From positions 2,289-66,288 of the forward strand of contig JAGWWA010000004.1 of NCBI GenBank assembly GCA_018970605.1: DNA of 64,000 bases, written 5' to 3'. Both the position numbers and the translations under genes were made by a program. The notes below the pieces were generated by a model that saw only the letters and a list, made by a program, of their open reading frames with translations, was not told where the DNA came from and made no database searches. Positions 20,770 through 61,249 of this stretch are shown here, piece by piece; positions within the stretch are counted from its first letter, which is position 1; every line of letters starts with the position of its first letter. Source of the DNA: Planctomycetota bacterium (GTDB lineage: Bacteria; Planctomycetota; Planctomycetia; Pirellulales; UBA1268).

Positions 20770-20822
20770 GGTCTGCCTCCTGCCGCGTCGGCCCGAGTGT
20801 TACAAAGAGCCATCTCGACGGG

Positions 20823-23340: not shown

Positions 23341-23386
23341 TGCGACCACCACGACCGGTGACCGCGAAGAGATGAATCCAACCGCC

Positions 23387-23409
23387 CCGCCGCCTCTTCG
23401 AGGCGGCGG
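23387..23409 (-). terminator. 9-bp GC stem-loop (CCGCCGCCT-CTTCG-AGGCGGCGG), possible terminator of the giant-protein/lipoprotein transcript
   Basis: A perfect inverted repeat is visible about 160 nt downstream of the lipoprotein stop. Only a weak T-rich trail follows on the minus strand. It could instead belong to the IS flank. Confidence 0.2.
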
Positions 23410-23566
23410 CGGACGGCACGAGCACACCGCACGATCAGCGACAGAAGCGACGGTTGACCGAAGGCCCCTACATAGCTAAAGCCGCGGCGATTCCTGCTGA
23501 AACCATTGGCGACTCGAAACAAAACCGCCGGGCGCGCGTTGGGCATGGCATCGCCTCGCATGTCGT

Positions 23567-24091: not shown

Positions 24092-24103
24092 GTGTCCTCC
24101 GTG

Positions 24104-27100: not shown

Positions 27101-29584
27101 CGTTGCGGTGTCGTCGATGCCCGCGTAGGGCACGCCCTCCTTCTCACCACGAACGACGATGTTGTCGATGGCCCACCACCAGTTGTTGTCGCCTTCGAAA
27201 TAGCCGAACTTGAACTTCATCTGGCCCGATGAAGGACTGTTGAGCGGGGCATCGACCGTAGCGCCCTGCACGTACTGACCCGCGGTGTTCGAAGCCGACA
27301 CCGTGATGTGGTTGTTGAGGGCACTGTTGGTGTTAGCGGCGTCGCCGAAGAAGAGCAGCGGCGACCAGGTCGCCCCATCGTCGTACGAGACCTCGACGGT
27401 GCCGTACTGCGGGAGTTCCTTGTTGTAGCTGGAGTCAAACTCGAGGGTCACAGTGCCGGGCGTGATGCCGGAGAGATCGATGGACTTCGTGATGAGGAGA
27501 CTGTTGAACCGACCCGCGGCGTGCGAGACGTCATCCCACTCGTCGGAGTCGGCCACGGCCACGGTGCCGGTGCCGAAGCTGAACCGACTGCGATCCTGAT
27601 CGCCGGCGGTCGTGATCCAAGAGTTCTTGTCGACGAACGTCCAGCCCTGGAAGTCGGACTGGCTGGCCGGCATCTGCGAGTTGTCCACCGTGAAGCCCGC
27701 CGGGAGCTCACGGGTAAAGTCGGTGCCGTCACCGCGCGGCTCGGTGACAAACGGGCCGAGGGGGAGACGATCGAACGTCTCGGTGAGCAGAACCGCGTTG
27801 CTGGTGAGCGTGCTGCTCGTGTCGAGGAAGGCACCGTCGTCGATCAGCAACGAGTAGCCGGTGAGGCCCTTGAGGTTGATCGGCGGGTCGATCGTGACGG
27901 TCGAGCCCGAGACGACGACGGCCGACGACTTGACATCGAGCGTGGCGCCGATCCAACCGGTGGCCGTCTCGACGATGTGGATGTTGCCGCTGCCCTTCTT
28001 CACCGTCGTGCCGAAGGTGAGGCTGAAGTTCGCCTTGTAGCCGACGCCGGTGGCGTTATCGGCCGGAGTGAGCGTGAGGACCTTCGGGCCCTCATCGTCG
28101 ACCACGTTGATCGAGGCCGTGCTCTGGGCGTAGACCACCGACGTGGCAGTGATCGTCACCTTTTGCGTCCGGTCGCTGAGGTTGTCGTCGACGGCCGTGA
28201 TGGGAAAGGTGACCGACGACTGGCCGTTCGGAATCAGCACCGTGGCCGGGACCGTAGCCTCGGTGGTGTCGCTGCTCGAGAGCGTGACCAGCACGTCGCC
28301 GACCGGCAGGTTGTTGCGAGAGACGGTCGCCGTGGCGGTGCCGCCGTTCTCGCTCATTGAACCGGGGTTGATTGCGAGGGTCAGCTTGGGCGACTCGGGC
28401 GTGGTGAAGTTCCAGAACGTGGCGTCGGAGAGGCCTGCATATTCGCCACCGACGATGTTCCCGGTGATCTTCATGTTGTCGACGCCCCACCACCAGTCGT
28501 TCGTGCCTTCCGTGTAGAAGCGGAACACGAGCGAGCCGCTGTTGGGGTTGACCACGGCACCGAAGGTGGCGCCGCCCTTGCCGTCGCCGCTCACGCCGGT
28601 CGAGGTGCCCGAGACGAGCCGCTCATTGATGCTCTTGTTGACGAAACTCGCGCTGCCGGCGGTGTTCGTGGTGTTGAACTCGTTGAGGGTCAAGAGAGTG
28701 GACCACGTGGTCCCGCCGTCGTAGCTCACATCGAGTTTGCCGGTCTGGGCCTCACCGGGGCCTTCAGGGCGGAAGCTCGAATCGAACTCGAGCTTCACCG
28801 AACCAGCCGCCACGCCCGTCAGATCAACGGGCTTGGTGGTGACATAGCTCTTGAACGCCCCGCCGTTGGGGGCGTCGTCGAACTCGTCGGTGTCGGCAAC
28901 CATGATGCCGCCCGAGGCAAGCGTGAACTGATCGCGGTTCTGGCCTTCGGGTGCACCGGCCTGTTTGATCCAGGAGTTCTTGTCGGCGGCCACCCAGCCC
29001 TTCCACTCCTCCTTGCCGCCGGTCGGCATCTCGCTGTTGTCAACGGTGAAACCGAGCGCTATGTTCGGGCTCCAGTCGGTGCCGTCGCCGCCTCCGTCGG
29101 TCACGAACGGCTGCAGGGGCGTGAAGTCGAAGTTCTGCTGGAGGAGCGTGGCACCGGTGGTTGGGGTCGACGAGGTGTCAATGAACGCGCCCTTGTCGAT
29201 GTACACCGAGTAGGTGTTGTCGAGTTCGAGGTCGGTCGGGAGGTCGACCGTCACCTGATTGCCGCTGACCGACACGTTCGCCGACCGCACATCCACTGCC
29301 ACGCCCGTCGTGCCCGTGCCCTGCCGGACGACGTAGATGTTGCCCTGGCCCTTGATCACGTTCTCGTTGAACGTGAACACCAGATCGCTGTTGAGCGGGA
29401 CGTTCGTCGAGCCGTCGAGCGGGGCAATGCCCGTCACCGAGAGCGCGAGCATGTTGCGGTTCTCAAACCGCTCCAGGCTGGAAAGCCCACCGAGCCGCCG
29501 GGGATGGCGGGCCTGGCGTGACTGAAACAGGCTCTTGAGGGCGGTCGCGAACGAGGCAGCGGTCGGGCGGCGGCGTAACGACAT
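24104..29584 (-). CDS. giant multi-domain surface protein (1826 aa): 3x [Ig-like + WWW-motif beta-sandwich + Calx-beta-like], lamin-tail domain, PATR beta-strand repeats, dockerin-like repeats
   Basis: Start at ATG 29584 (MSLRRRP...RRLGGLSSLERFENRNMLA). Three supermodules of about 437 aa ending NDWWWGVDNM / NNWWWAIDNI / NDWWWAIDNI. LTD motif VVISEIMYD...EWVELYN. PATR repeat GTGMLVLTGSNTHSGGTVVTAGTLVV. GDSNLDGSVDIGDL / GDFNHDGVVDQLDL. Confidence 0.85.
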   Translation of the reverse strand: MSLRRRPTAASFATALKSLFQSRQARHPRRLGGLSSLERFENRNMLALSVTGIAPLDGSTNVPLNSDLVFTFNENVIKGQGNIYVVRQGTGTTGVAVDVRSANVSVSGNQVTVDLPTDLELDNTYSVYIDKGAFIDTSSTPTTGATLLQQNFDFTPLQPFVTDGGGDGTDWSPNIALGFTVDNSEMPTGGKEEWKGWVAADKNSWIKQAGAPEGQNRDQFTLASGGIMVADTDEFDDAPNGGAFKSYVTTKPVDLTGVAAGSVKLEFDSSFRPEGPGEAQTGKLDVSYDGGTTWSTLLTLNEFNTTNTAGSASFVNKSINERLVSGTSTGVSGDGKGGATFGAVVNPNSGSLVFRFYTEGTNDWWWGVDNMKITGNIVGGEYAGLSDATFWNFTTPESPKLTLAINPGSMSENGGTATATVSRNNLPVGDVLVTLSSSDTTEATVPATVLIPNGQSSVTFPITAVDDNLSDRTQKVTITATSVVYAQSTASINVVDDEGPKVLTLTPADNATGVGYKANFSLTFGTTVKKGSGNIHIVETATGWIGATLDVKSSAVVVSGSTVTIDPPINLKGLTGYSLLIDDGAFLDTSSTLTSNAVLLTETFDRLPLGPFVTEPRGDGTDFTRELPAGFTVDNSQMPASQSDFQGWTFVDKNSWITTAGDQDRSRFSFGTGTVAVADSDEWDDVSHAAGRFNSLLITKSIDLSGITPGTVTLEFDSSYNKELPQYGTVEVSYDDGATWSPLLFFGDAANTNSALNNHITVSASNTAGQYVQGATVDAPLNSPSSGQMKFKFGYFEGDNNWWWAIDNIVVRGEKEGVPYAGIDDTATWSVTTAEAPTLTVTLTPASISENGGVATGTVTRNVAAGTSGALVVALASSDTTAATVPATVTIPDGQSSVTFSISGVDDLLSDGSQTSVITATATDFFSVSATVTVLDDDFPKPTNFSPADNATAVAVSANGVVTYDQAIKKGNGFIYIVRSSDNKAEKMIDINSAEVSISGSTLTINPVRDLVKLTDYYILIDNGAVLSASSFVTSGVQLLKQDFELLPLGPAVYETVGLQGGKEFTATPPGGWTTDNSAMPFGGAPEWRGWTFANKNFWTTEGGQSRANFTLGSGTVAVADTDEWDDYGYYPKNSFNAKLLSTPINLATVAASSVTLEFDSSFRPESGGSFTPYTPDNMQGFLDVSYDAGATWTNLLTLDSSNTLGSSTAANVNEHRTVSVQNPDDGTMVFRWTNTGTNDWWWAIDNIIVKGTVDGLPSPGISSPTTWNFTTADAATLTVTAAAAATEGDAPLTGTVTRNLGTVGDLVVTLASSDTGAATVPATVTIPNGQESVTFPITIVNDARYRGTRPVTFTATAASFVAGTTSVSIADNDVGEVVISEIMYDSSQSGSRDTATEWVELYNRGSSTADVGNWYFDDEDTIKWGAIPAGTTIPAGGVLVLYNNWVGTASEFRAAWNVPATAGVVGLVWGDLDNSPTRVNEMFVLKDASGTTRNTANFAEDGTVWPAYVAGSSHYLKNLTGDTDVGTNWRASVAGTDGALHPTSAVYNAADTGSPGRVGADGTIVDVPSGQTQTDSTVHSGAERIVKQGTGMLVLTGSNTHSGGTVVTAGTLVVKNLAALGSGALEVQAGAKVVLDVGTGTVDITSLVLATGGLLDFGAGKLTAQSGLNRTSILAAINAGKGDGSWNGIAGFTSTVVASTPARTLGWMDNGGSFTVGYAAPGDSNLDGSVDIGDLANFLGSGQLDAGTPADWISGDFNHDGVVDQLDLADLLGASLYDVGNYLPATEAPASASGSSVTPVEAAFAAFAAESQVGTGRKKSAFSLV
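25465..29443 (-). repeat. Three tandem coding repeats of about 1.31-1.36 kb inside the giant gene
   Basis: Module starts are near 29443, 28083 and 26765. The WWW landmarks near 28485, 27175 and 25860 give a period of about 1310 nt. Confidence 0.75.
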
Positions 29585-29761
29585 GAGAGACTCCCGGTTT
29601 CGCGTAGGGCGTTGGGTGAACGAAGACGAACAGGCGACGTTATGAACTTCTTCGATGAGGACATCACCAGAGTTCCGTGAGTTTTCGATGAAAATCTCGT
29701 AGCGGTCTGACAAGGGACATCGCCCGTTCGAGCTACCGAAGGGCTTTTTCGAGGGATCTGT

Positions 29762-43676: not shown

Positions 43677-44531
43677 TCACTGCCCGACATCGCCGGCCGA
43701 TGCCGTCACCAGCGACACGAACACCTCCGGATCGACACTCTCCTCGATCGACCGCACGGAAGCGTCGCCAATGACGAACATGCACATCCCGGGATGGAAC
43801 GAGTAGATCTCGTTGTTGTTGTGCAGGTTCATCATCTGGCCGCCACGCTGCTCGTGGATGGCAAAGTAACTGTCTTTATCGGCCCACCGAGCGCCGCTCA
43901 CGGCGGTGCTGCCATCCGGCTTGCTACCCACATACCCCAGCGGCCGCCCCGCATCCTCGTAGAGAAGAATCGTCTTGGAGAGTCCGTCACTGACCGCCGA
44001 ACGCTTCCGGGCCTGCGGCCAGAGCATGCCCGTCCAGTTGGCGCGGGTCGTGAGTTGCTTGGCCGAAACCAGCGCGGAGTAGGCGGACGCATTGACCTGA
44101 TGACATGCGGCGTAGTCCGAGACCGGGTCAGTCCGTGCGGGCGCCGATGGGCAGACCGTGGTCGTGAGCGGCGAGGCCAGCAGCGCCTTGTTCTTGCCGA
44201 CATTCCAATCCTTGGTCCAGTCGACCTGATCGCCGATCTGCCCCTGCTCCATGTAGGAGAGGATGAAGGTGTAGAAACTGTGCCGAGCCGGAAGGGTGGC
44301 CGATCCGGCAGGCTCGGTCCATCCGGGCGGGATCTTCCGCTGGCCCGACTCATAGGCGTGCACCGCGAGGCCCGTCTGCTTGAGATTGTTGGAGCACGAC
44401 GTCCTCCGGGCCGACTCGCGTGCCGACTGCACCGCCGGCAGCAGCAGGCCGATGAGCGTGGCGATGATCGCGATCACCACCAAGAGTTCTACAAGCGTGA
44501 ACCCGCCGCATGGCCGATCGTGCCGCTTCAT
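43677..44531 (-). CDS. DUF1559 prepilin-like protein (H-x9-DA variant)
   Basis: Start at ATG 44531 ([43 protein letters not shown]). C-terminal [17 protein letters not shown]. Confidence 0.85.
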
Positions 44532-44554
44532 GTCCGCTCCGTTGATGGACTCCT

Positions 44555-47500
44555 TCACGAAAGCCCGCCCCGGGTCCCGTGACCATCGCGAACGGGTAGC
44601 CAGATTCGCCGTGCCCGGCACCAGGCCAGCACGGCTCCAGCAACGGCGAGCATCGCGGTTGCGGACGGCTCGGGCACCGCTGCCACGGCCGCTGCCTGAG
44701 GAGCGGGATTGAAGAGCCCCGCGTCGAACAGGCCGGTGGAGAGGAAGTCGGCGGCGTCGAGGATGTCCACAACGCCGTCGTAGCCAAAATCGCCCTCGTT
44801 CCAGTTGGCGGGCGTGCCGCTGTCAAACTTTCCGCCAGCCAGGAAGTTGGCCGCGTCGAGGATGTCGACGGTCCAGTCGAGGTTCGTGTCGCCCGGGGCG
44901 GAGAAGGCAACGCTCATCGCTCCGTCGCCGTTGTCGAGCCAGCCCAAGGTCCGCGGAATCGACTGGCCGAGAGCCGTAACGGCGGCGGACGACGTGATCC
45001 CGTGCGTGCCGTTCCACGAGCCGTCGCCGCGGCCGGCGACCAGGTCGGCCAAGAGGTCGGCCTGCCTGATGCCGCCGACGGCGATCGCAAAGCCGCCGGC
45101 GCCAAGGTCGAGCAGGCCCGCGGCCTCGTCGACGGCGAGGCTGGCAAGTGAGTGCATGGTCGCCGCCGAGGAGGAAAGAATCAGCGAGCCTCCGGCACCC
45201 ACCGAGACCGCCGGCGATCCCGCAATCGTCCCCGCACCACGAACCTCGACCCGTGCCACGCCGGTCGAGGAATCGACGGCGAGCGTGCCAGCCCGCAGCG
45301 TGCCCCCGTCCACCGTCACCTTCGGGGATCGCATCGTCACGCCGCCGGCGACGTCGAGCATGCCAGCCGACCGCACGACGACCTCGCTCGTCCCGAGAGC
45401 AGCGGCGTGCGATACTCGCAGCGTGCCGCCAGACACCGTGGTCGCGTTGGTCAGGCCGGTCGACTGCCGCAGGTCGAGCGTGCCGCTGCCCGACTTGATC
45501 ACGGCGCCGCCGCCTTCGACGGTGCCGGTGACGGCCACCAGCGTCCCGGCATCGACGACGTCGACCGTGAGGCTGGGATTGCCGATGTAGGCATACCGGC
45601 CGAAAGTGCCGGTGCCGATGCCCGATACGCGGAGCGTTACCGCGTTGCCCGCATCGCCGATCGTGAACGCGCCGTTGCCGCTCGCCGGCAGCGCCGACAC
45701 ATCGAAGTCGATGGTGCCGTTCTCGAGGTTCACCGGCAGGTCAGCCTGAAGCACCACACCCGGGCCGAACGTGACGGTGCCCGAGGTGGTCTTCTGGAGA
45801 AACTGGCTCGTCGCGAGCCGAATGAGCTGGCCTCCGCTCCCAGCGCCGGTGAAGGCCGTCTCGACCCGGCCGGACCGGAGATCCATCCGGTCGAGGTTCG
45901 TGTTGACGCCGGTCCGGGTGCCCGACATCCGCAGCGTGCCGCCGTCGAGGATCAGGCCGCCCCAGTTCTCACCCTGCTGCAGGTCGAACAAGCCGCCGGC
46001 GTTGATCGTGACGTTCGTGCTCTGCGGGAAGTCGGCGTTGCCGGGGGCTCCAAACGTGAACCGGCCGCCGTCGTTGATCACGATCGACGTCGCATTGAGG
46101 TCGCCCCCCTGACCGCGATCCTCGAGGGCGAGTTCGCCGCCGTTGACCATCACCGTGCCCGTGAAGCCGGTGCTGCTGGCGAGGATCGTGAACAACCCGG
46201 GCCCCGCCTTGACGACCGTGCCGGCTCCCGACAGCGTGCCCGAATAGGTGAGGGCGTCGCCACGATTGAAGGTGGCCGTGGCCCCGGCCGCGACCGCGAC
46301 GTTGCCGGCCAGGCCGCCGGCCGTGCCGCCGTCGCCGATCCGGAGCTCGCCGGCGTCGACGCTCGCCCCGCCGGCAAGGCTCCCCGTGACGGTCACGAGG
46401 CCTCCCGAGACGGTCACGCGACCGGTCGCGACGCCGTTGGCGACGTCGAAGGTCGCCCCCGAAGCCACCGACACCGGCCCGGCAAAACTGCCCGAGGCGA
46501 GGCCGGTGCCGATCCGCAGCGTGCCCGCGGAGATCGTCGTGGCCTGCGTGCCGGTCTTGGCGACGGCCAGCGTCACGCGGCCGGTGCCGGTCTTCGTGAT
46601 CCCACCCGAAGCGATCGCACCCGAACCCGTGATCGTGTACTCGGCTGCCGAGTTGTTGAACGTGATCTCGGCCGGCGTCACGAACTCGTCGACGGTCACG
46701 GCCGTGCCGATGGCGGTGTCGTCGAACGCGATCCGGTCACCGACCACGAAGTTGGTCGCCTGCGACGTCGACGTATCGATCCAGTTGATGGCACCGCCGA
46801 CGTCGACCGCCGAGCCGGTGTCCCAGACGGTCGAGGCATTGCCCCGCCACCGGAGCTGACCGGTGCCGAGCACGTCGAGGTCGAGACGCGTGTTGGCCGT
46901 GTCGTGAACGAGCGTCGCGAGCACCCGCGGCGGCAGCGTGCCGAGCGTGAACGAGGAGGGCACGGCGGCCCCGTCGTACTCGAGCAGCGTGAACCGGCCG
47001 ACGCCCAGCGACTGGGACGACGCCAGCGACACGGCCACGGAACCCGAGAGCGTCAGCCCGCCCGGCGTGGTGACGCTCATCAGGGGCACCGCCGGGATGC
47101 CGGGCTCGGCGAGCGTGAAGCCGAGCTTCGAGCCGACCCCGAGCGAGAGGGACGGCAGCGAGAGGGTGGTCGTGGCGGCCTGGTTGACCACCGCGAACGC
47201 CGCACCGGCGGCGACCGACCCACCCGCCACGCCGGCGTAGGGTGTCGAGCCGAGGGTGCCCGAGAGGACGGTGAACGGGCCCTCCATCGCGTTGCCGCCG
47301 GTGAACAGGAGCGTGCCCGCCCCCGCCTTCGCGATCGGACCACCGCCGGCCACAGCACCGCTGATCGAGAGGACTGCGGCAGGATTCGTGACGTCGACGG
47401 TGCCGCCCCCCGCGGCCAGCGTTACGGATCCCGAACGGAGGGCCGATCCGCCGTCGTAGACCAAGGTGCCCGCGGTCGAGGCGCCGCCGAGCGTGAGCGG

Positions 47501-50500
47501 GCCGCTGCCGACGTTCGCGGCAGCGACGATCCGCAGCGTGCCATCCTCGACGGTCAGCCCGCCGGTCGAGGTGATCGAGGCCGACCCGTCGACCGTCACG
47601 ACGCCCGCGGTCGACTTCACGATCGCCGCCGCGCCGCCGACCACGAAGCCCTGTGTGCCGCTGCCGGTGAGCCGGCCGGAGGTCCAGATCTGCACCGTCG
47701 GCGTTCCACTCGACGTGATGCTCCCCTGTTGCACGTCGATCTCGCCGCCCAGCAGGTGGACGCCGCCGAGATCCTCCCCCTCCTGCCAGACCACGCGGCC
47801 GCCCGCATTGGCCGTGATGAAGGTCGTCGTCGGCAGGTCCGGGTTACCGATCTGGTTGTTGCCGAACTGGAACGTGCCGCCGTTGTTGACCACGATCGCG
47901 GTCGGAGCGAGGTCGCCGCCTGCACCCGGATCCTCTATCCGCACCTCGCCGGCGTTGATGGTCACCGAGCCGGTGAAGCCGTTGTTCGAGGCGGTGAACG
48001 TCGTCCGACCGCTGCCCGACTGCACGATCGCGCCCGAGCCGGAGATCGAGCCGCCGAAGACCAGCCCATCGGCCTGGTCGAAGCGGATCGTGCCGGCCGG
48101 GTTGACGACGAGCCCGCCGGTCAGAGCCGGTGCGGGACCGCCGGCACCGATGGAGAGCACGCCTCCGCTGACCGTGGCGATGGAGGCGAGGCTGCCCGAG
48201 GCGATCGTCGCCGACCCGCCGGTGACGGTGATCCCGCCGGCGATCGAGCCGTTGCGGAGCGTGAAGCCCCCGGAACCGCTCACCGCGAGCGGAGCCGCGA
48301 TGGTCACGGCGGTCGAGCCGTCGCCGGCCTGGAGCGTGCCCCCGGCCACGGTCATCGCGCCGCTCGAGGAGTTGGACACGAGCAGCGCGAGCGATCCGGC
48401 GCCCTGCTTCCGCAGGACCCCACCGCCGGTGATCGCCCCCGTGCCGCCGAACGAATAGGCGACCGCCGCGTTGTCCACGAGGATCGAGCCCGGGGCCACG
48501 TCGCCGGCGAGGGCCACGCTGCCGACGACCGACGAGTCGTCGAAGATCACCTGGTCGCCGGTCACGAAGTTCGTCCCGAGCGAACTCGACGCCAGTTCCC
48601 AATTGCGGGTGCCGCCGACATCCGCTGCAGTGCCGGCGTCCCATGTGGTCGACAGGTCGCCGACCCACCGCACCGAGTCGACGCCCGTGATGTCGAGGTC
48701 GATCGACGTGTTCGTCGTGTCGTACACCAGCGTGCCGGCCAGCCGGGCCGGCAGGGCGGCGAGCGAGAAGCCGCTCGAGATCGGCGCACCCTCGTAGTTG
48801 ACGAGCGTGAACCGGCCCGCCTGGAGCGCGCCTGTCGTCTGCACCGCAATCGTGTGGGCGCCGCCGGAGGTCACGAGCCCGTCGGCCGTCGTCACGCTGA
48901 GCAGCGGCACGACCGGATTTCCGGCCGACGCCAGATCGAACCGCAGGCCGGAGGCGCCTGCACCGAGCGTGAGCGTGGGCAGCGTGAGCGTGGTCTCGGA
49001 GCCGGTATTGACGACCGCAAACGACGCGCCGTTGGCGACCGTCACCGCCGGCGCCGCAAACGGACTGAGGCCCAGCGTACCCGACGAAACCGTGATCGGC
49101 CCGGAGAAGGCGTGCCCGCCGATCAGGTCGACGCGGCCGGGCCCCACGTTCCGCAGCGCGCCCGAGCCCGACAGGGCACCGGCCACCGTCAGCCGGCCGG
49201 CCCGGTTGAACTCGAGGATCGCCCCGCCGTCCACCGCGATGGGGCCCGCGATGCCCCCCGCGGTGCCGCCGGCACCGATCCGCAGCGTGCCGGCCGTGAT
49301 CGCGGTGCCGCCGGTGAAGTCGTTGTCAGTCGCGAGCGTCGCCGTGCCCGTGCCCGACTTCACGAGGCTGCCGCCGCCGGTGATGCGGCCCGCCCCAGTG
49401 AACGACTGGCTGCGGCTGCCCACGTCGAGCGTCACCCGCTGCGGTGACACGGCTTCGGCGATCGTGACCGCAATCGGGCCGGACCCGGCCGCCGAATCGT
49501 TGAACACGACACGGTCGGTGTCGATGAAGTTCGTGGCCGAGCCGCCGGTCTGGAGGAGCCAGTTCTGCGTGCCGCCGCTGCCCACCGCCGACCCGCGATC
49601 CCAGGTCGACGATGCGTTGCCCTTCCAGACGAGCGAGTCGAGCGTGTACGTGACGCGGAGATCGGGCCGCCGGTTGGCGTCGGACGCGGTCGGGCCGCCG
49701 AACACCCACCCATCGGTGGTCGCCGCCCGCAGCAGGAGGCCATTGTTCGCGGCGCCGGCCTTCCAGTCGTTCACGGTGGAGGTGATGTCGAACCAGCCCT
49801 GGGCGTTCTTGCCGAGCGCCACCGCGCTGCCCGAGGTGACGGCCACGTAATCGATGCCCGACACCGGGCCGCTCGAGCCGGTGCCATACGCCGAGTAGGT
49901 CGTCGTGCCACCCCACGACGAGAGCATGCGGTAAGCGTAGTAGGGTCCGCCCGACTCATCGTTGGAGGCGTTGCCTGTCGTGGGCACGAACCACGACTTG
50001 AGCACCGCGGCCCGCAGCGGCACCTGACCGGCACCGGACCCGAAGATGCCATCGTACTTCACGATCGCGAGGAGGTCAGGGCTGCCCGCGTCGCCCGGCG
50101 GGTTGCCGCCGGTCGGGCCGTCGAGCGTGATCGTCGTGCCGGCCGTCACGTCGAGCGTGGCGTTCGTGAGGCCGTGGAGCGTGATCCCCGAGAATCCGGC
50201 GTAGCCCGCGACACCAGGCTTGATCGAGGTGGTGATCGTGGGCGTGGTGGTGTAGGTGACCGACAGCTTCGGGCGGTAGGCGACGGTCGCATCGGCCGAG
50301 CCGAACACCTGCCAGGCGTCGGTCGTGTGGGCCTGCACCACCATGCCGTTGTTGGCGAGCGTGCCGTCGGCCCACTGCTGCACGAGCGGCGCGACAAAGG
50401 CGGAGTAGAAGGTGTTCTGCGCCGGGGCGCGGTAGCCGGCGAGCGGGAGGGTGGCAAGGCCGTTGGCGTAGGTCGGGCCGTTGGTCATGATCGTGCCGTT

Positions 50501-53500
50501 GCCGGTGCCGAGATCGTTCAGCGTGGCCGCCGCCGAGAACGGCACCTTCATGCCGCCGATCACGAAGGTGCCGGCCGACTGCGAGTTGCTGTTGCCCGTG
50601 GTGCGGAGCGTGAGTTGGGCGTCGAGAATCGTGGCGCCCGCCGGGATCAACCCGGCGGTGGACCCGAAGATGGACTCGTACTTCAGGAAGAACTGCCGCT
50701 CCGTGCCGTCGCCGCTCGACACCCCGTCGATACCGACGGTGGTCACGGTGCTGGTGGCGGAGGCATTGCCGATCGAGGCCTCGGTGATTCCCGCGTAGGT
50801 GGTCGAGGTGCCGGTGAGGGTGGCACCCTGCTGGAAGGTGACGGTCGTCTGAGCCTCGGCCGTGCTCCCCGCGAGCAGCGCCGCCAGCGCGGCCGCCGCG
50901 GCGGCCCGGCGGAGGCGTCGCCCCGCCCAGGCTGCCACGGCGGCGATGGCAAGGATCGCGGTGATGCCGGGCTCCGGCACGATCACGAACTGGCTGTTGT
51001 GGTTGACGACGGCCCAGGTGCTGTTCGCCGACGGATCCCGGCCGTAGGCGCCCACGTAGGCCGAGAGGTCGCCGCCATACTGCGTCTGGAAGTCGGTAAA
51101 GCTGCCGAGGTAGCCCTGCTGCGCCGGGATCGCGTTGTTTCCCGTGTTGCCCAGGGTGGCGTTCACCCAGTTCGCCGCCGTACCCGACGACGCGTTCCAG
51201 CCGAGGGCGAGCGTCGCCGCGGTGCCGGCGTCGAGCCCCGAGGCGTAGGTCATCGACAGCACGAACGGCGTGGTGCCGGTGGCCGAAGTGAGTTCGAGGA
51301 CATCCGAGAACAGGCCGGACTGGGTCGGCAGCCAGGTCATCGAGACCGTGCCGCCCCCTGCCGCGACCGAGCCGGAAAGAATCGATGCCGACGTAGCCGC
51401 GGAGGCCGACCGGAAGCCGGCGAGGCTGCTGCCGGCAGCCAGCGGCAGGCTTCCACCCGACGCCACCGACACGCTGCCGCCCGGTTCGGTCGTCACCGCG
51501 AAGCCGCCGAGGTCGAGCGTGGTGGCGACCGTCAGGAAGCCGCCGTTGCCAACGAGCACGTTGCCGGTGCCGAGCGCCCGCGGCACGCCGGCCGTGAGCG
51601 AGCCCGACGCGATCGTCGTGCCGCCGGTGAAGTTGCCCGATCCGCTCAGGAGGAGCGTGCCGAGCCCGGTCTTCACGAGCGAGCCCGTGCCCGTGAGGCC
51701 GGTGGGCAGCGTGAGCACGGCCGCCGCGTCGGTCACGGCGATCCCGCCGACGCCGCCGAGCGTGAACGCGCCCGACCGCGAGGCCGTCGCACCGTCGTAG
51801 CGATACGTGCCGGAGGTGCCGTCCGCTCCGAGCGTCACACTGCCGGAGCCGAGGTTCAGGGCCGAGGCGAACCGCATGGTGCCCTCGCGGATCGCGATCC
51901 CGCCGGTGGTGGTGATCGATGCCGACCCGGTGACGAGCACCTCGCCGGCCGTCGTCTTGACGATCGGCCCCGTCCCGCCGATGGCGTACGTCGCCCCCGT
52001 GAGCGTGCCGCTCGTCCAGCCGCTCGTGGCGGTGGTCCCGGAGAAGTTCATGCCCCCCTGCTGCAGGTCGACGAGGGCTCCCTGGAGGTGCATTCCGCCG
52101 AAGTCCTCCGGCTCCTGCCAGACCACGAGTCCGCCGGTGTTGGCCGTGATGTAGGTCGTGTTCGGCAGGTCCGGATTGCCCAGCGTGGCATTGCCGAACT
52201 GGAACGTGCCGCCGTCGTTGACCACGATCGCCGTGGCCCCGAAGTCGCCGCCGAGCCCCTGGTCGTCGATCCGCACCTCGCCGCCGTCGATCGTCAGCGC
52301 ACCGATGAACGAGTTGCTACTGGCGGTGAAGGTGACGCGGCCGGCACCAGACTTCGCGATCGCCCCGCTGCCCGAGAGCACGCCGCCGTACGTGATCGTG
52401 CCGGTGTTGACGAACGCCAGCGTCCCGCCGTCAGCCACCGAGACGTTGCCGGCGAGTCCACCGTCGCCGATGCCCAGCCGACCCGCGGTGATCGTGGCGC
52501 CGGATTCGAACGTGCCGGCACCGAACGAGGCCGTGCCACCGCTCACGGTGACGAGGCCCGCAACCGTGCCGGACGTGAACGTGGCCGTCCCGGCCGAGAC
52601 CCCGAGCGTGCCGGCGAGCCGCGAGTTGCGGACGTCGAGCAGGCCGCCCGCCACGCTCACGTTGCCGGCCACGTTTACGGCCGTCGAGGCATCCCCGAGC
52701 TGCAGCGTGCCAGCCGACACCAAGGTGCCGCCAGAGGAAGAGTTGGAGACGAGCAGCGTCATCCGGCCGGTGCCGCTCTTCGTGAACACGCCCGAGCCGC
52801 CGATCGACCCCGGGCCGCCGAGCGTGTAGTCGAGCGTCGCGTTGCTCGCCGCGATCGCACCGGGCGCGACGACACCCACGATCGACACCGTGCCACTGGA
52901 GGCGGAGTCGTCGAAGCCGACCTGGTCGCCCGTGTAGAAGTTGGTGACCGTGGTGCCCGTCGAGGCAAGCACCCAGTCGAAGGCGCCGCCCACGTCCACC
53001 GCCGCGCCGGTGTCCCACGTGGTCGAGCTGCCCCCCTTCCACCGCAGCGTGTCGACGCCCGTGATGTCGAGGTCGATGGTCGTGGCCGTCGTGTCGTAGA
53101 CGAGGGTTCCGGTCAGCCGCTGGGGCAGGGGGGCGAGCGTGAAACCGGACGAGATCCCGGCGCCGGCGTAGTCGACAAGCGTGAATCGCCCGACTCCGAG
53201 CGCGCCAGTCGACGCGAGCGAGATCGTCTGGCCGCCTCCGCCGAGCGTCAGGCCGTCGGCCTGCGTCACCGAGAGCAGCGGCACGGCGGGATTCGACGCG
53301 GCCGCCAGCTCGAAGCCGAGTGTCGAGCCGGCCGCTCCAAGGGCGAGCGTGGGCGTCGTGAAGGTCGTGGCCGTCGCGCCGCTGGAGGCGGCGAAGGTGG
53401 CGCCGTTCGCCACGGTCACACCTCCGACGCCGCTGCTGCCCGAGCCGAGCACGAGCGTGCCGGCAGCAACCGACACCGGGCCCGCGAAGGCGATCGGCGC

Positions 53501-55297
53501 CGAGAGAGCCACGCGGCCCGCCCCGGCCTTCACGATCGCCCCGCTGCCGGTCACCGCGCCGGTCATGGTAACGCTGCCCGTTCGGTTGAAGGCCAGCGTG
53601 GCCCCGGAGGCGACGGCGATGCGGCCGGCGAGCGATCCGGTCGCGCCGCCGTCACCGAGCTGCAGCGTGCCCGCCGACACCGTCGTGCCGCCCGTGAAGT
53701 CGTTGTCGGTGGCGAGCACGGCGAGGCCCGTGCCGGTCTTCTCGAGCAGGCCCGCGCCCGTGATCCGGCCGGAGCCGGTGAACGTGTACCCCCGCGAGGC
53801 CACGTCGATCGTCGTCCGCTGCGGAGCAACGGCGGCGGCGATCACCACGGCCACGGACCCTTCGCCGGTGGCGTTGGCGTTGAACACCACGCGGTCGGTG
53901 TCGATGAAGTTGGTGGCCGTGCCGGCCGTCTGCAACTGCCAGTTCGGCGTGCCGCCGACGCCGACCGCCGAGCCCTTGTTCCACGTCGTCGAGGAAGCCC
54001 CGGTCCAGACGAGCGAATCGATCACATACGCCGTGCGGAGATCCGGCCGGCGGCCCGCGTCCGAGTTGCCGCCGCCGCCGACCACCCAGCCGTCGGTGGT
54101 GGCCGCCTTGACCAGCAGACCGTTGTTGGCCGCGCCTCCCTGCCACGCCGCCACGGCCGACGTGACGTCGATCCACGCCTGCGCATTCTGCGACATGGCG
54201 TTCGCGGTGCCCGTCGCCGCCGCGACGTAGTCGGTGCCCGCGACCGGGCCGCTCGACCCGGTGCCGAAGCTCGCGTACGTCGTCGTGCCTCCCCACGCTG
54301 TCAGCATCCGGTGCACGCTGTAGGGACCCGCCGACTGGTCGTTGGAGCCGTTGCCGGTGGTGAGCACGAGCCAGCTCTTCGCGATGCTCGCCCGCACCGG
54401 CACCTGATCGGCCGCCGACCCCACTACGCCGTCGAACTTCAGGAACCCGAGCAGATCGGGGCTGCCGGCGTCGCCCGGGGGCGTGCCGCCGGTGGGCCCG
54501 TCGAGTGCGATCGTGGAGGCTGCGGTCGCATCGGTGGTCAGACCGGAGACGCCGTTCATCGTCACGGCCGTCAGCCCCTGGTAGCCTCCCACACCCTGCT
54601 TGAGCGACGCAGTCGTCGTCGGCTGGGCGGTGTAGGTGACGGCCAGCTGAGGCCGATTCGCGACGGTCGCGTTGGCGATTCCGCCCAGGACCCACGCATC
54701 GGTGGTCTGCGCCTGGACGACGAATCCGTTGTTGGCAAGGGTGCCATCAGCCCACTGCTGCACGAGCCCGGGGCCGAGCGGGATGGCGTAGGCGGTGTTC
54801 AACGCCGGCGCCCGCAGCGAGCCATAGCCAATCGTCGCATTCCCGTTGGCGTAAGTCGGGCCGTTGGTTCCGGGCGCACCCGTGCCGGTGCCGAACTGCG
54901 TGATCGACGTGCCGGACGTGTACGACGTTCGCATCCCGGAGAACAGGAAGTAGCCGCCGCTGTTGTCGTTGGTCGCACTGCCCGTCGTCACGCGGAGCGA
55001 GGCTTCGAGGATGGTGGCCCCGGCGGGAATCTGCCCCGCGCCGCCCCCGAAGATCGAGCCGAAGGTCAGGAAGTACTGCGACTCCGTGTTGTCGCCGGCG
55101 TTCGAGCCATCCACGTTGGCCGTGACCCGCGACGACGTGCCGCCCGTCATGTTGATCTGGCGATCGACGGCGCCGGAGTAGCCGGCGGTCCCCTGCTGGA
55201 AAGTGACCGTGGACGTCGTCACGGCCTGCGCCAGGGCGACGGCAGGCAGGCAGGCGAGGACACCGAACAGGGCTGAAGTGCGTCGGAACCCGATCAT
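44555..55297 (-). CDS. giant surface protein ORF (3580 aa): two tandem paralogous units, each signal peptide + 2 DNRLRE/CBM96-like domains + long PATR beta-strand repeat arrays + PEP-CTERM
   Basis: Start at ATG 55297 ([25 protein letters not shown]). The track start at 55603 would overlap the lipoprotein gene. There is an internal [25 protein letters not shown], and the C-terminus has dockerin-like repeats plus [24 protein letters not shown]. Confidence 0.8.
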
Positions 55298-55376
55298 GGT
55301 GACACCTGGGGGGGAACGTGTGCGATGCGAAACGAGGCGGGCGGACAGCAGGATCGACGGGCAGCCACGGGGCTCG

Positions 55377-55895
55377 TCACCCAGGCGGCTTGGCGGCACG
55401 CGTGGTGAGATCGAACGGGGCAATGCTGGACGACATCCGGCCGACGGAGGCCTTGAGCGGCGACGTCTCCGGGTTCGCGAACCGGCCACCGAGGCGGTCC
55501 ACCTCGGTCGCGTTGGCCGCGGCGGCAGCCTCGGGATCGTCCGACGTGCTCGTCGCCTTCTCGGGGCCTCCGGCGAACCACTCCGCCGTGACGACGTACT
55601 CACCCACCGGCGCGCCGTCGGCCATCTCGTAGGTGCCGATCACGAACGAACCGTCGGATCCGGTGCGGGCCGTTGGACGAAGTTTCTCGAGCCTCGTGTC
55701 ACCGGCGTTGATCGGATGAAGCACCACCTGCACGCCCGCCACCGGCTTCCCGTCGACCCGGACGGTTCCCTGGGCCGGCACCGTGGCGAGCCGATCCGAG
55801 CCGCAGCCGACGACGGCAACCACGGCGACGCATGCCACCACCGCGACGACGAACGAGGCAGCACCTGGCGGAACGTGCAGGACTGGGCTGGACAC
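55377..55895 (-). CDS. small lipoprotein with carboxypeptidase-regulatory-like domain (paralog of 23567..24091)
   Basis: Lipobox VAVVGC, then AQGTVRVDGKPVAGVQVVLHP...TGSDGSFVIGT...GEYVVTA. Confidence 0.7.
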   Translation of the reverse strand: MSSPVLHVPPGAASFVVAVVACVAVVAVVGCGSDRLATVPAQGTVRVDGKPVAGVQVVLHPINAGDTRLEKLRPTARTGSDGSFVIGTYEMADGAPVGEYVVTAEWFAGGPEKATSTSDDPEAAAAANATEVDRLGGRFANPETSPLKASVGRMSSSIAPFDLTTRAAKPPG

Positions 55896-55976
55896 GGGTA
55901 ACCTTCCGAGGCGAGCGTCGCGGCCTACCGGGGCGGCGACGTACCGAGGTTGTCACCGACGACGGTGAGCGGCGTG

Positions 55977-58274
55977 TCAGGCGACCGTGAGAGTTCGGCG
56001 AGAAATCGATGAGCGTTGCGTGAGCGAGCGGGTTTGCACGGGCCCCACGTCGACCATCGCGAACGCGGCAAACGCAGCGGCGAGCGAGCCGGAGGTCGCC
56101 ACGGGCCGGGGAGCTGCCGCAGCGGACGCTGCTCGCCAGACGACGACCAGCCGAGGCCGGTCTCCGGGTGCGAGGGCTTCACTGCTGGAAAACCCCCAGG
56201 GATCGGTCGACCCGCCGCGGATCGCCCAGCCGTAATTGGGAGCGCCGCCAGCCCATGCCCGCACGCTCGTCGTGACGTCGAACGACGCGACCCCCGGCGC
56301 CACCGAGCCGATCACCCGATCCGTGCCCACCTCGGCCTCGATGCCGTCGAGCTGCACGCCATTGCCGCCGTAGGCCGACGCCCACGTGGCTGCCGCCGAG
56401 AACGGCTTCCGCAGCCGCACGAGGCTCGCGCCCCCGCCGGCGGCGTCGGGCACCGCGGCGGGCGTGGTGAGCACGACCCGGGCGGATTCGATCGCGGCCC
56501 CGGCAGGAATCAGGCCGGCTCCGCTCCCGAAGAGGCCATCGAACCGCAGCAGGCCCACCTGCTGACGTCCTGTCACCGCCCCGGCCCAGATGATCGCCGA
56601 CGCGTCGAAGCCTCCGGTCGGCCGCTGCTGCGAGAGCAGGGTGTCGGCTGCCCCCGAGTAACCGGCCACGCCCTGCTGGAAGGTCGCCGTCGCGGCCGTG
56701 GCCCGCACCCACTCGACCTCGAGCCGGGGGCGGTCGTCGATCGCCGCGGCCTCGGACGAGGCAAACGCCCAGCCGTCGGTGCCGGCGTTCCAGGGAACGA
56801 AGGCCCAGCCGCGATTCGCCTCCCCGTCGGCCCAGGCCTGCACGTCGGCCGTCACGTCGATCGTGAAGCCGGAGGCGGCCGGAACCAGCGGGGCGCGAAA
56901 CGCGGTGCCTGCCTGCGCAGTGGACGCCACCGCAGCCTCGCGGCCGTCGGCCTGCACGCCCCCCGCCAGGGAGTTCCACGTTGCCGAGGCCGACCATGCC
57001 GCAAGCATCCTGTGAAGCCGGCCGCCGGCGCCGGGATTCGTGGATGCGACGACCAGCCTGGCCGACGTCACCCGCGCTCCAGCGGGAATCTGGCCGGCCG
57101 CGGTCCCCACGATGCCGTCGAACCGCAGCAGCACCTGGCTGGCATTGGCCTGGGCGGCATCGGCGGCATCGACGAGCAGCGAGGTCGCCGACGCGAAGGC
57201 GGTCGTCGGCTGCTCCTGCCGGAGCTGCGTGTCCACGCCGCCCGCATAGATCGCTCCGCCGCTCACACGGCCCTGCTGAAACGCGCTCGTACCGGCCGCC
57301 TCCGGAACCTGCGGCCCGAACCGCCCCGCGAAGTCGACCGTGAACGAGAAGGTGCTGTTGGCGTCGATCTCCTCGATGCCGGTGAGCACGTTGATTGTCC
57401 GCACGTCGATCCGTCCGGCCGACGTGTCGAACCTGAGCACGTTCATCCATCCATCGCCGCCGTTGCTGCGGCTCTGGTAGTCGGCCACCATCTCGTGCAC
57501 CGGCTGGCCCAGCACGTTGAGCGATGTCTGGTGATGCTCCCCCGAGAAGTGGCCGTTCATCACGAGGATGATCTGCGGGTTGGGCCGGATCAGCTTCTGA
57601 AAGACCTGCTCGCCCGTGTTGCTCGGGTCGCCGGGAAAGCCGGCATCGCCGTTGAGCGTGGCCATCCGCGCCCGTGTCGTCGGATTGAGGTAGGAATGGG
57701 TGGAGATGATCGTGGGCAGGCCGGGGTAGCGGGCGACCATCTGCTGTGCCCAGGCGAGGTCGCTGTCGAGCGGCTCGAACTGGAAGGTCAGGTGGAGAAA
57801 CCGGTAACCTCCGGCGGTGAACGTCTGGGCATACGCGCCGAGCCGTCCCGACTCCTCGAGATACCAGCTGCGGCCGCGGTACCGGGCCGCGGAGAAGTAC
57901 TGCTCGTACAGGGATGCCCCGTTGGGCTTCGTGTACATCGTGCGATAGTCGTGATTCCCGATGGTGGCGGAATAGGGCACGATTCCGTCGGGGCTCGCGG
58001 CGAGGTTGCCGTCGAGGATGTCCATCGCCGCGTCGGCGTTCACCCACTGAGAAGCGGAGGCGCCGACGTTGACGATGTCGCCGAGCTGGCTGACGAAGGC
58101 GATGTTCTCGGCGGCCTTGTTGGCCACGACCCAGCGGGTTTGGGCCTTGAACGTGTCGGGGTAGGTCTGCGAATAGAACTGCGTGTCGGGGAGAACGGCG
58201 ACGGTAAAGGGCGCCGCTGCGGGAACCAGCCGTCCTTCCAGCCGCTCGAGTCGGAGCACAAGCGGATCACTCAT
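55977..58274 (-). CDS. metallophosphoesterase fused to three DNRLRE/CBM96-like domains
   Basis: The ATG 58274 overlaps the upstream stop (ATGA). An in-frame GTG about 63 nt upstream is an alternative start. LRLERLEGRLVP N-motif. AVLPDTQFY, QLGDIVN, GNHDY, NGHFSGEH. Three blocks ending ...DRPRLEVEW / ...DRPRLVVVW. Confidence 0.8.
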   Translation of the reverse strand: MSDPLVLRLERLEGRLVPAAAPFTVAVLPDTQFYSQTYPDTFKAQTRWVVANKAAENIAFVSQLGDIVNVGASASQWVNADAAMDILDGNLAASPDGIVPYSATIGNHDYRTMYTKPNGASLYEQYFSAARYRGRSWYLEESGRLGAYAQTFTAGGYRFLHLTFQFEPLDSDLAWAQQMVARYPGLPTIISTHSYLNPTTRARMATLNGDAGFPGDPSNTGEQVFQKLIRPNPQIILVMNGHFSGEHHQTSLNVLGQPVHEMVADYQSRSNGGDGWMNVLRFDTSAGRIDVRTINVLTGIEEIDANSTFSFTVDFAGRFGPQVPEAAGTSAFQQGRVSGGAIYAGGVDTQLRQEQPTTAFASATSLLVDAADAAQANASQVLLRFDGIVGTAAGQIPAGARVTSARLVVASTNPGAGGRLHRMLAAWSASATWNSLAGGVQADGREAAVASTAQAGTAFRAPLVPAASGFTIDVTADVQAWADGEANRGWAFVPWNAGTDGWAFASSEAAAIDDRPRLEVEWVRATAATATFQQGVAGYSGAADTLLSQQRPTGGFDASAIIWAGAVTGRQQVGLLRFDGLFGSGAGLIPAGAAIESARVVLTTPAAVPDAAGGGASLVRLRKPFSAAATWASAYGGNGVQLDGIEAEVGTDRVIGSVAPGVASFDVTTSVRAWAGGAPNYGWAIRGGSTDPWGFSSSEALAPGDRPRLVVVWRAASAAAAPRPVATSGSLAAAFAAFAMVDVGPVQTRSLTQRSSISRRTLTVA

Positions 58275-58924
58275 GGCGCCGCTCCGACGGTCCAGGCCCG
58301 CACGACCCGCCCGCGGGCCAGCCGGCGAACGCACGCGGCCGTCGCGGCGGCCACCCGCTCCAGCATGCAGGCGGCGGCGTCGACACCCATGAGGTGCTCG
58401 GGATCGACCCGGCGCGTGATCACGCCGGCCGCGATTTCCCCGCGGATCCGCTCGCGGACATCCGCGACCTCGGCGTGCGAATCCCGGATGGCATCGGATG
58501 CCTCCGCATCCCACTCGCCGACGGCGTCGGCGGCCAACGACACCACGACGCCGACGCACGCCGCGAGGCGGTCGAACGAGGGCGCCGCGTGCGCCGCGGC
58601 CTCCCGATCGAGCGTCTGCAGGAGGGCATCCAGGCCGCACGTGGCCACGGCCGCCACCTGCAGGTCGGCGCAGCAGCCGAGCACCGTGGTGGCGAACTGC
58701 AGATCGGTGGCCACGGGCCGGTACCGGGCGAGGAACTCGATCGCGTCGGCTTGGAGATCACGGGCGACCGCCGCGATGTCATCGTGAATGACGCCACGTC
58801 GTGCCGATCCTGCCGCGACAGAGGCCGCCGGCACGGCGATCGTTGCCACGAGCGCCCCTTCCAGCAGCGTCGCCAGGGTGGCGACCCGCTCGCGGAGCCG
58901 CTCGCGTTGTCGGTCGATGTGCAT
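58271..58924 (-). CDS. divergent PhoU-domain protein
   Basis: Start at ATG 58924. There are two helical repeats: VIHDDIAAVARDLQADAIEFLARYRPVATDLQFATTVLGCCADLQ resembles the PhoU core (..KRQPvAsDLR..i.k...dLERIGD). The second repeat ends in MLERVAAATAAC. The acidic metal-binding residues of ERIGD are not conserved. Confidence 0.55.
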   Translation of the reverse strand: MHIDRQRERLRERVATLATLLEGALVATIAVPAASVAAGSARRGVIHDDIAAVARDLQADAIEFLARYRPVATDLQFATTVLGCCADLQVAAVATCGLDALLQTLDREAAAHAAPSFDRLAACVGVVVSLAADAVGEWDAEASDAIRDSHAEVADVRERIRGEIAAGVITRRVDPEHLMGVDAAACMLERVAAATAACVRRLARGRVVRAWTVGAAP

Positions 58925-58970
58925 GGCTGTGGCCCTGGTCCCTCCGAAGGCCCGGCAGGCTAGCGGCGAA

Positions 58971-58989
58971 TCGTGAGGATCGTGTGCGG
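58971..58989 (+). promoter_or_regulatory. TCGTGAGGATCGTGTGCGG direct-repeat element between the PhoU-like gene and the SDR gene
   Basis: Two TCGTG(A/T) hexamers 9 nt apart, in the 88-nt divergent gap. Similar to the elements at 9519..9658 and 31897..31916. Confidence 0.2.
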
Positions 58990-59012
58990 AATGGCCGGGT
59001 ACACTGCCACCC

Positions 59013-59935: not shown

Positions 59936-61249
<1,314 letters not shown>

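Follow-up and report, generated by a model that had tools for sequence, protein, structure and literature searches.

The question raised by two loci in a 64-kb window of planctomycete DNA (64,000 nucleotides (nt) of contig JAGWWA010000004.1, positions 2,289 to 66,288; G+C content, 68.7%) is what holds together the four kinds of gene that occur in both, namely those for a small lipoprotein, a protein of the DUF1559 family, a giant surface protein and a phosphoesterase. The first-pass annotation had given a gene content and order that proved correct at both locus 1 (18823..29584) and locus 2 (43677..58924), and had read them as a recurrent cassette of four components. Pairwise protein comparisons led us to reject the idea that one locus is a duplicate of the other. 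The two DUF1559 proteins are 28% identical, mainly in the pilin helix, the two lipoproteins 27% identical (E 9e-7), the two phosphoesterases belong to different Metallophos subfamilies and are unrelated beyond the superfamily (E 0.025), and the giants have only a C-terminal module of ca. 250 amino acids (aa) in common (41% identity). Since the loci are not duplicated cassettes, their four components are alike at the superfamily level only. The recurrent unit is a lipoprotein/DUF1559 pair with one adjacent secreted partner, and not a four-gene cassette.

At locus 1, the minus strand encodes in order a giant surface protein of 1826 aa (giant 1; 29584..24104), a small lipoprotein with lipobox IVGC and a conserved GCGKPPMQxVxGxV motif (lipoprotein 1; 24091..23567), a DUF1559 protein of 369 aa that carries the H-X9-DG motif (DUF_1; 21932..20823; PF07596, E 9e-43) and a 648-aa phosphatase (20769..18823) in which a LamG domain (Laminin_G_3, 63.8 bits) is combined with a Metallophos domain (59.7 bits, cut-off 21.5). 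This phosphatase family is conserved across Planctomycetota, and its surroundings were surveyed in database loci and by a metagenome scan that together provided 30 informative loci with phosphatase identities of 59-98%, including that of the cultured marine species Roseimaritima multifibrata (61%). The lipoprotein, DUF1559 and phosphatase genes are co-directional and contiguous, in this order, in 25 of the 30 loci; the lipoprotein/DUF1559 pair is adjacent to the phosphatase but divergent in three, and absent in two. In R. multifibrata, the trio is located within 2260037-2281956 of CP036262.1, at 8346-11920 of locus L100. Pair and phosphatase are thus adjacent in 28/30 loci, where the expectation for immediate adjacency is a few per cent, and inversion of the pair has not separated it from the phosphatase (L111, L115, L120, L170, L174 and L179). 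The DUF1559 proteins linked to the phosphatase form one orthogroup with 44-89% identity to DUF_1, all other DUF1559s in the data having 34% at most, and orthologues of lipoprotein 1 adjoin every phosphatase-linked DUF1559. In a more distant clade (46-53% phosphatase identity), DUF1559 adjoins the phosphatase in 4 of 34 informative loci, in divergent orientation, with one case corresponding to a DUF1559 without lipoprotein. A giant gene upstream of the lipoprotein was found only in the window lineage (L097, L101-L107) and in L124. Judging from gene order, the conserved core of locus 1 is the trio of lipoprotein, DUF1559 and LamG phosphatase, and giant 1, which displays three Big_5 domains, reelin/MAM-like repeats, an LTD domain and a dockerin-like module, with only one PATR (41.9 bits) and no PEP-CTERM, is a lineage-specific addition upstream of it.

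The LamG phosphatase begins with a Sec-type signal peptide. Purple acid phosphatases are recognised by the motif set DxG / GDxxY / GNH(D/E) / VxxH / GHxH, including the tyrosine ligand, and the motifs read in the window protein are GDTQG, GDLVDQG, GNHE, SYHHP and GHIHSYE, with no tyrosine at the GDxxY position. PF16656 (Pur_ac_phosph_N) is recorded for homologues but was not detected in the window protein. The enzyme is therefore designated as purple-acid-phosphatase-like, and it is probably not 'purple'.

In the window genome, the lipoprotein-DUF1559 spacer of ca. 65 nt is occupied by an insertion sequence of the IS110 family (21892..23557, plus strand), the boundaries of which were set by alignment with the uninterrupted loci L101 and L105. 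Its transposase (21918..23075, plus strand) matches Transposase_20 with 73.2 bits (cut-off 21.3) and falls just under the cut-off for DEDD_Tnp_IS110 (27.7 versus 29). An unrelated IS110 remnant lies in the same spacer in L097 (7705-8873) and L098, suggesting that a preferred target site occurs there.

The cluster at locus 2 is also encoded by the minus strand and begins with a divergent PhoU-like protein of 217 aa (58924..58271), the stop codon of which is overlapped by the ATG of a 765-aa metallophosphoesterase with two C-terminal DNRLRE/CBM96 domains (55977..58274). These are followed by a 172-aa lipoprotein with lipobox VVGC (lipoprotein 2; 55895..55377), a giant surface protein of 3580 aa with ca. 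10 PATR, four DNRLRE, a G8 domain and a PEP-CTERM (giant 2; 55297..44555) and, as last gene, a DUF1559 protein of 284 aa (DUF_2; 44531..43677; PF07596, E 5e-46; N_methyl, E 2e-7). Intergenic gaps are, in order, -4, 81, 79 and 23 nt; no terminator-like site was found between these genes, the two terminator-like matches detected falling outside the gaps, and a sigma-70 promoter scan returned no promoter-like sites.

Four relatives indicate which of these genes belong together. In L001 and L011, detected by their phosphoesterases (82% and 74% identity), the order phosphoesterase, lipoprotein, giant is kept and the PhoU-like gene is absent. In L091 and L094, found via the lipoprotein (63-67% identity), a PhoU-like gene is followed by the lipoprotein, a 2140-aa giant and a DUF1559 gene. 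The flanks of L091 match the window on both sides, with an SDR gene on one side and the DAO-HAD-HD genes on the other, and the SDR side is conserved in L094. The PhoU-like orthologues (52-54% identical) hold the equivalent position in both, as do the orthologues of DUF_2 (94% identity in L094, 77% in L091). The DNRLRE phosphoesterase is missing from these two syntenic loci and represents, therefore, a later, lineage-specific insertion into the cluster. From this synteny, the conserved core of locus 2 is, optionally headed by the PhoU-like gene, the series lipoprotein, PATR giant and DUF1559. With giant 1 confined to the window lineage and L124, and the DNRLRE phosphoesterase lacking from L091 and L094, the fixed four-component cassette was abandoned. 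A conserved pair formed by the PhoU-like and DNRLRE phosphoesterase genes was considered as well and discarded: the genes upstream of the enzyme are not PhoU-like in L002 and L008, and L001 and L011 do without it.

The claim that lipoprotein/DUF1559 pairs are tied to a secreted phosphatase is supported for locus 1, where the link is conserved and has its own DUF1559 orthogroup, and is not supported for the enzyme family of locus 2, around which DUF1559 is not enriched. Linkage is strongly above chance for the lipoprotein-DUF1559-LamG-phosphatase trio and not for the DNRLRE phosphoesterase with DUF1559. The broader notion that such pairs are tied to neighbouring secreted proteins is supported by the conserved trio and its private orthogroup.

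Members of the DNRLRE phosphoesterase family occur in Planctomycetota, haloarchaea, Acidobacteriota and Actinomycetota, some of them fused to alkaline phosphatase or phytase. Recombined versions of the neighbourhood were encountered in Anatilimnocola (lipoprotein, DUF1559, DNRLRE phosphoesterase) and in L015 (DUF1559, lipoprotein, cadherin-like giant, DNRLRE phosphoesterase), and in L030 a DUF1559 gene is divergent from the enzyme. In L008, a metagenome-assembled genome of Pirellulales, the gene is split (9426-11974), with an upstream open reading frame of 192 aa that corresponds to the enzyme's own N-terminus, and is a frameshift or a pseudogene. A 1901-aa chain in L088 (843-6545) contains LamG, CBM96/DNRLRE, Metallophos, a purple-acid-phosphatase N-domain and fn3, and so unites the domain sets of both window phosphoesterases.

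Several assignments at locus 2 deserve to be detailed. The PhoU-like protein aligns with positions 3-194 of 212 of TIGR02135 (E 1.1e-11) with 44.8 bits for a cut-off of 130, and with Pfam PhoU (PF01895; E 0.007) with 17.2 bits for a cut-off of 23.5, and its best match in the PDB is PhoU (4q25, E 0.022); because these scores are below cut-off, it is named 'PhoU-like' only. The phosphoesterase exceeds the gathering cut-off for Metallophos (PF00149; 25.2 bits versus 21.5) and matches CBM96 with E 1.7e-10. For DNRLRE (NF033679; cut-off 34), it scores 116.6 bits with two copies, giant 2 scoring 105 bits with four, and the DNRLRE pairs of the two proteins are 31-32% identical. Lipoprotein 2 has 36 homologues, mostly 58-100% identical, and weak matches to CarboxypepD_reg/DUF4198; its AlphaFold2 model (mean predicted local distance difference test (pLDDT) 69) gave generic matches to transthyretin/CnaB-like beta-sandwiches with low TM-scores, so that this fold is predicted with modest confidence.

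Giant 2 exceeds the cut-offs for PATR (PF12951; 101 bits versus 27, with autotrns_rpt detected 10 times) and for a C-terminal PEP-CTERM (PF07589; 24.4 bits versus 20.7); no exosortase was seen within the window. Two paralogues are fused in frame in giant 2, gA (55297..50882) and gB (50881..44555), each composed of a tandem DNRLRE pair and PATR beta-helix repeats, to which gB adds the G8 domain, a dockerin-like module and the PEP-CTERM. At the junction (ca. 50830-50980), gA ends in a complete PEP-CTERM (VPEP, transmembrane segment, RRLRR) that continues directly into the signal-peptide-like beginning of gB. The fusion is also found in L001, whereas a single gene occurs in L091 and L094, the giant of the latter showing at its N-terminus a remnant of the PEP-CTERM helix. 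Neither the DNRLRE phosphoesterase (58274..58215, minus strand) nor giant 1 (29584..29440, minus strand) begins with a hydrophobic signal peptide; both have in common an N-terminal L-E-x-[LF]-E-x-R-x-x-[PL]-A motif (LRLERLEGRLVPA in the former, LERFENRNMLA in the latter), which is also kept in the consensus of the phosphoesterase family, and a C-terminal AAFAAFA stretch (gene ends at 55977 and 24104, respectively). Motif and stretch may be unrecognised sorting signals.

Both of these DUF1559 proteins exceed the gathering cut-off of PF07596 (DUF1559/SBP_bac_10; 158.3 and 147.6 bits, cut-off 23.3) and carry an N-terminal motif for prepilin cleavage and methylation (PF07963, 30.8 and 25.6 bits, cut-off 21.2; TIGR02532, 22.8 and 23.6 bits, cut-off 16.3). 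For the C-terminal H-X9-DG motif (TIGR04294, cut-off 19), DUF_1 scores 33.4 bits, DUF_2 staying below the cut-off with 15.8. The AlphaFold2 model of DUF_1 (pLDDT 83.7, predicted template modelling score 0.84) predicts an N-terminal helix of 52 residues (18-69) followed by an alpha/beta head; the helix is the sole part that matches solved structures, which are type IV pilins including those of the gonococcus and Myxococcus, and the structure search returned no solved homologue for the head. Public sequences of the superfamily, clustered at 50% identity, fall into 199,209 clusters. Other DUF1559 genes in the loci retrieved adjoin unrelated secreted proteins (FG-GAP/ASPIC, cadherin-like, Calx-beta), being located before the genes for FG-GAP/ASPIC or Calx-beta proteins, and the module is therefore generic rather than specific for phosphate. 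Two fusions echo the partnerships seen in the window: P0345 combines DUF1559 and TPR with LamG, a lectin-type domain that the phosphatase of locus 1 also has, and in P0361 a PATR protein is read through into a DUF1559 gene.

Upstream sequences give an indication of how the two loci may be regulated. In six foreign lineages, the trio is preceded by two to four direct repeats of the type [CG]TTCA[CT]N5 with an exact 11-bp period. A simple search of the window for TTCAY-N6-TTCAY was set aside: it found three sites, one of them upstream of giant 1, where 3.6 were expected by chance. Because this count was no higher than chance, a position-weight model was adopted, built from the repeat units of those six foreign loci only. 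Its third-ranking two-unit match in the window (29672; score 18.7) belongs to the repeats TTCATCGAAAA CTCACGGAACT ... CTCATCGAAGA (29650..29704, minus strand) in the 177-nt spacer upstream of giant 1, with equivalent matches upstream of the giant in L097, L101 and L105; it lies above all block shuffles, in which the maximum score averaged 13.9 and never exceeded 18.3. The fourth (56004; score 16.8) belongs to the direct repeats GCTCACGCAAC GCTCATCGATT TCTCGCCGAAC (55993..56025, minus strand), ca. 100 nt upstream of lipoprotein 2, which overlap the last codons of the locus 2 phosphoesterase gene. A match at 9584 (score 19.5) lies between a Metallophos gene and a PF04185 gene that form a divergent phosphoesterase pair, and one at 16888 (score 20.7) is inside a 2OG gene, ca. 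470 nt upstream of a PF04185 phosphoesterase. The latter site (16888-16909, minus strand, in the 2OG-Fe(II) oxygenase gene) is conserved in L097 (13835-13856) and L101 (12462-12483). Upstream of the PhoU-like gene, the element CCGCACACGATCCTCACGATTC (58968..58989, minus strand) is a weak Pho-box-like match (score 10.1, rank 9); in L091 (9092) and L011 (9813), the first gene is likewise preceded by a near-identical element.

In related loci, the equivalent position holds the top-ranked match of the whole locus. This match precedes the lipoprotein gene in L001, L011, L091, L094 and L005 and the gene for the DNRLRE enzyme in L002 and L006, and in L099 it lies in the promoter of the HD operon. No match directly precedes giant 2, DUF_2, DUF_1 or the phosphatase in the window, which is consistent with these being internal operon genes. 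Direct repeats with an 11-bp period are the sites of regulators of the PhoB/OmpR type, and Pho boxes precede operons for extracellular phosphatases. The architecture of a Pho box, with at least two direct repeats of 11-bp period upstream of phosphate-starvation genes, is found here, and the fact that both operons share such an element with other phosphoesterase genes, always on the upstream side, argues for co-regulation. No phoB or phoR was detected in the window; we infer from the repeats that regulation would be exerted by PhoB under phosphate limitation.

Profile matches describe the window as a phosphorus-scavenging island of roughly 60 kb, with at least 10 phosphorus-related genes: three Metallophos, two PF04185 phosphoesterase/beta-propeller and two GDPD genes are accompanied by HD, HAD and DAO genes, two 2OG-Fe(II) oxygenases (PF13759), an MFS transporter and a class III aminotransferase, and the list is completed by an EutB-EutC fusion, the PhoU-like gene and a GlnD-like gene (HD+ACT). 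The parts outside both loci (8035-17807, 31902-43655 and 58977-63999) include the HD-HAD-DAO operon and one of the Metallophos genes. This gene set suggests catabolism of phospholipid head groups and aminophosphonates. An Rfam scan of the window gave no match. Since the whole window is rich in phosphoesterases, lying within five genes of 'a phosphatase' is uninformative by itself.

The explanation that we favour, and to which we give about an even chance, is that each lipoprotein/DUF1559 pair serves as a partner-specific accessory module for the adjacent secreted protein, here under phosphate limitation. Because 11-bp-periodic YTCAY direct repeats lie upstream of each operon, a shared regulator is proposed: the two operons of this Pirellulales-like island would be switched on by a common response regulator of the Pho type. 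Each would possess its own paralogue of a two-gene module consisting of a beta-sandwich lipoprotein and a DUF1559 protein with pilin signal, helix and head. At locus 1 the partner would be the LamG purple-acid-phosphatase-like enzyme, giant 1 having been added upstream in the window lineage; at locus 2 it would be the PATR/DNRLRE/PEP-CTERM giant, the DNRLRE phosphoesterase, with the binding domains of the giant, having later been inserted behind the PhoU-like gene. The DUF1559 protein would be processed by a prepilin peptidase and would then either remain in the inner membrane or become part of a type II secretion or type IV filament, where its head would, together with the lipoprotein, bind the cognate partner and export or display it. 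Phosphate limitation would in this way equip the surface with binding proteins and with phosphoesterases that free phosphate from polymeric organic phosphorus. The model is built on what was observed, namely the content and synteny of the loci, the specificity of the orthogroup, the conservation of the motif and the predicted folds; regulation by PhoB, processing and assembly as a pilin, and physical contact between module and partner are inferred.

A number of observations speak against this model. Many of the trio loci are related freshwater metagenome contigs that amount to ca. 15-17 lineages rather than 28 independent events, so that vertical inheritance accounts for part of the conservation. 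In this genome, the operon of locus 1 is interrupted by the IS110 element, and the motif is absent upstream of DUF_1. The top-scoring match of the window (16888) sits in a coding region, and the motif differs in its sequence from the Pho box of E. coli and could belong to another regulator of the OmpR family. The PhoU-like assignment falls under every curated cut-off, the sample of other DUF1559 neighbours is small, and the assembly machinery (GspD/E/F, PilB/C/Q, prepilin peptidase) is not encoded in the window. Finally, no enrichment of DUF1559 was seen around the DNRLRE phosphoesterases: the loci of 36 planctomycete species, 567 kb in all, contain five DUF1559 genes. This density of ca. one per 113 kb is to be compared with a background of ca. 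one per 80-100 kb, obtained by relating the published 68-74 copies per genome to planctomycete genome sizes of ca. 5.5-7 Mb.

A density at background is what chance would predict, DUF1559 genes being so numerous that two of them in an island rich in phosphatases might mean nothing. With 68 copies in P. limnophila (two of them essential) and 74 in R. baltica (PMC10632474, PMC2754498), with the vast number of clusters in public data and with the phosphorus-related genes crowded in this window, some neighbours are to be expected; as a general account chance is nonetheless very improbable, facing adjacency to the LamG phosphatase in nearly all informative loci, the specificity of the orthogroup and the conserved core of locus 2. 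It is largely refuted for the trio and for this core and stands only for the link between DNRLRE phosphoesterase and DUF1559. Another possibility is a single phosphate-starvation regulon that remodels the cell surface, the genes sharing promoters and their products acting independently, with no protein interaction. The Pho-box-like motif does precede many unrelated phosphorus genes in the window and related loci, the architecture of an island is clear, and phosphoesterase and giants have been gained and lost between lineages; yet a regulon does not need immediate adjacency, and the pair, with its private DUF1559 orthogroup, adjoins the phosphatase even when inverted. Co-regulation without interaction appears, for these reasons, distinctly unlikely.

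The remaining alternative is near to what the first-pass annotation had imagined and appears unlikely to us, too: DUF1559 would form or tip retractile pilus-like fibres, the head of which binds not a neighbouring protein but a phosphorus-containing polymer, pulled to the cell or into an enlarged periplasm for the phosphatases. For P. limnophila and G. obscuriglobus, binding of dextran to pili-like fibres on crateriform structures has been described (PMC5394234), the N-terminus of DUF1559 is of the type IV pilin type, Pfam classes the family as solute-binding (SBP_bac_10), and the partners carry lectin-type LamG and DNRLRE/CBM96 domains, alginate being bound by the founding member of CBM96 (PMC9971899). 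The partners, however, include non-enzymatic giants and FG-GAP/ASPIC proteins, and the predicted head is unlike any fold known to bind carbohydrate or phosphate. A given DUF1559 orthogroup goes with a single protein partner, which fits recognition of a protein better than that of a substrate.

Extended to the family as a whole, this model would turn the DUF1559 paralogues (tens to hundreds per genome, often with a lipoprotein) into a combinatorial repertoire of pilin-like adaptors with specific cargoes. Each pair would recognise one secreted enzyme or giant adhesin and pass it on to a shared type II secretion or type IV filament machinery, by which it would be exported or displayed on fibres. 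We propose this generalisation tentatively and consider it doubtful; if true, the lipoprotein-DUF1559-LamG-phosphatase trio, under control of the Pho type, would be the first case with adaptor, cargo and inducing condition all known. No paralogous family of Planctomycetes is larger than DUF1559, which has no assigned function. In the literature on DUF1559 function, planctomycete pseudopilins and the planctomycete Pho regulon, we found no paper that assigns one or reports the present linkage, and DUF1559 is not among the subjects of a review of the phylum from 2025. Since the trio has a defined secreted enzyme, DUF1559 function becomes directly testable, helped by a private DUF1559 orthogroup, a likely inducing signal in phosphate limitation and a cultured carrier, R. 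multifibrata; the trio would thus offer the first testable clue to the function of the phylum's largest family of unknown genes. A candidate Pho box for Pirellulales-type planctomycetes is a further outcome, and the comparison shows how phosphorus islands of freshwater planctomycetes are put together, by insertion of enzymes and giants into operons already present.

Among known systems, the phosphatase operons of Pho regulons are alike in that secreted metallophosphoesterases are preceded by two to four direct repeats with an exact 11-bp period, in a setting here made of an island of phosphoester and phosphonate genes. They differ in the core of the repeat, which is YTCAY here and not CTGTCAT, and in that the operons described here comprise, in addition, giant surface proteins and a pair of pilin-like protein and lipoprotein. 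Giant 2 resembles PATR/autotransporter-repeat surface proteins by its ca. 10 PATR and a C-terminal PEP-CTERM over the cut-off, but has no autotransporter barrel, displays tandem DNRLRE and retains an internal PEP-CTERM at the fusion junction. The Verru_Chthon multi-copy pilin-like cassettes of Verrucomicrobia, which we take to be what TIGR02596 describes, are also multi-copy prepilin-type proteins of the PVC (Planctomycetes-Verrucomicrobia-Chlamydiae) superphylum with no assigned function. TIGR02596 matches the N-termini of the DUF1559 proteins (E 1e-6 to 6e-5), but by the N-terminal helix only (28.6 bits versus a cut-off of 70), and the composition of the cassettes differs. Type II pseudopilins (GspG-K) are another case: the N-terminal 50-55 residues of DUF1559 match GspG, GspH, GspI and ComGC (E 1e-7 to 1e-3), and the DUF1559 neighbours here are secreted hydrolases. 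The similarity is nevertheless limited to the helix, GspG (TIGR01710) being matched over residues ca. 10-65 only, with 30.6 and 30.8 bits for a cut-off of 88.85 and not over its full length, and no gsp operon occurs in the window. A parallel also exists with modular or adaptor minor type IV pilins such as PilB of S. sanguinis and CofB of enterotoxigenic Escherichia coli. The DUF1559 proteins differ from these by a head without solved homologue, by tens of paralogues per genome, by frequent pairing with a small lipoprotein and by the lack of pilus-assembly genes nearby, and their incorporation into a filament and binding of a partner are proposals. Like these pilins, they combine a class III signal peptide with a long pilin helix at the N-terminus and a head domain grafted onto it. 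Modular pilins are widespread and the minor pilin CofB acts as adaptor for a specific secreted protein, CofJ (PMC8179133); by analogy with the presentation of CofJ by CofB, a role of the DUF1559 module as adaptor in the export or display of its neighbour is the one that we favour.

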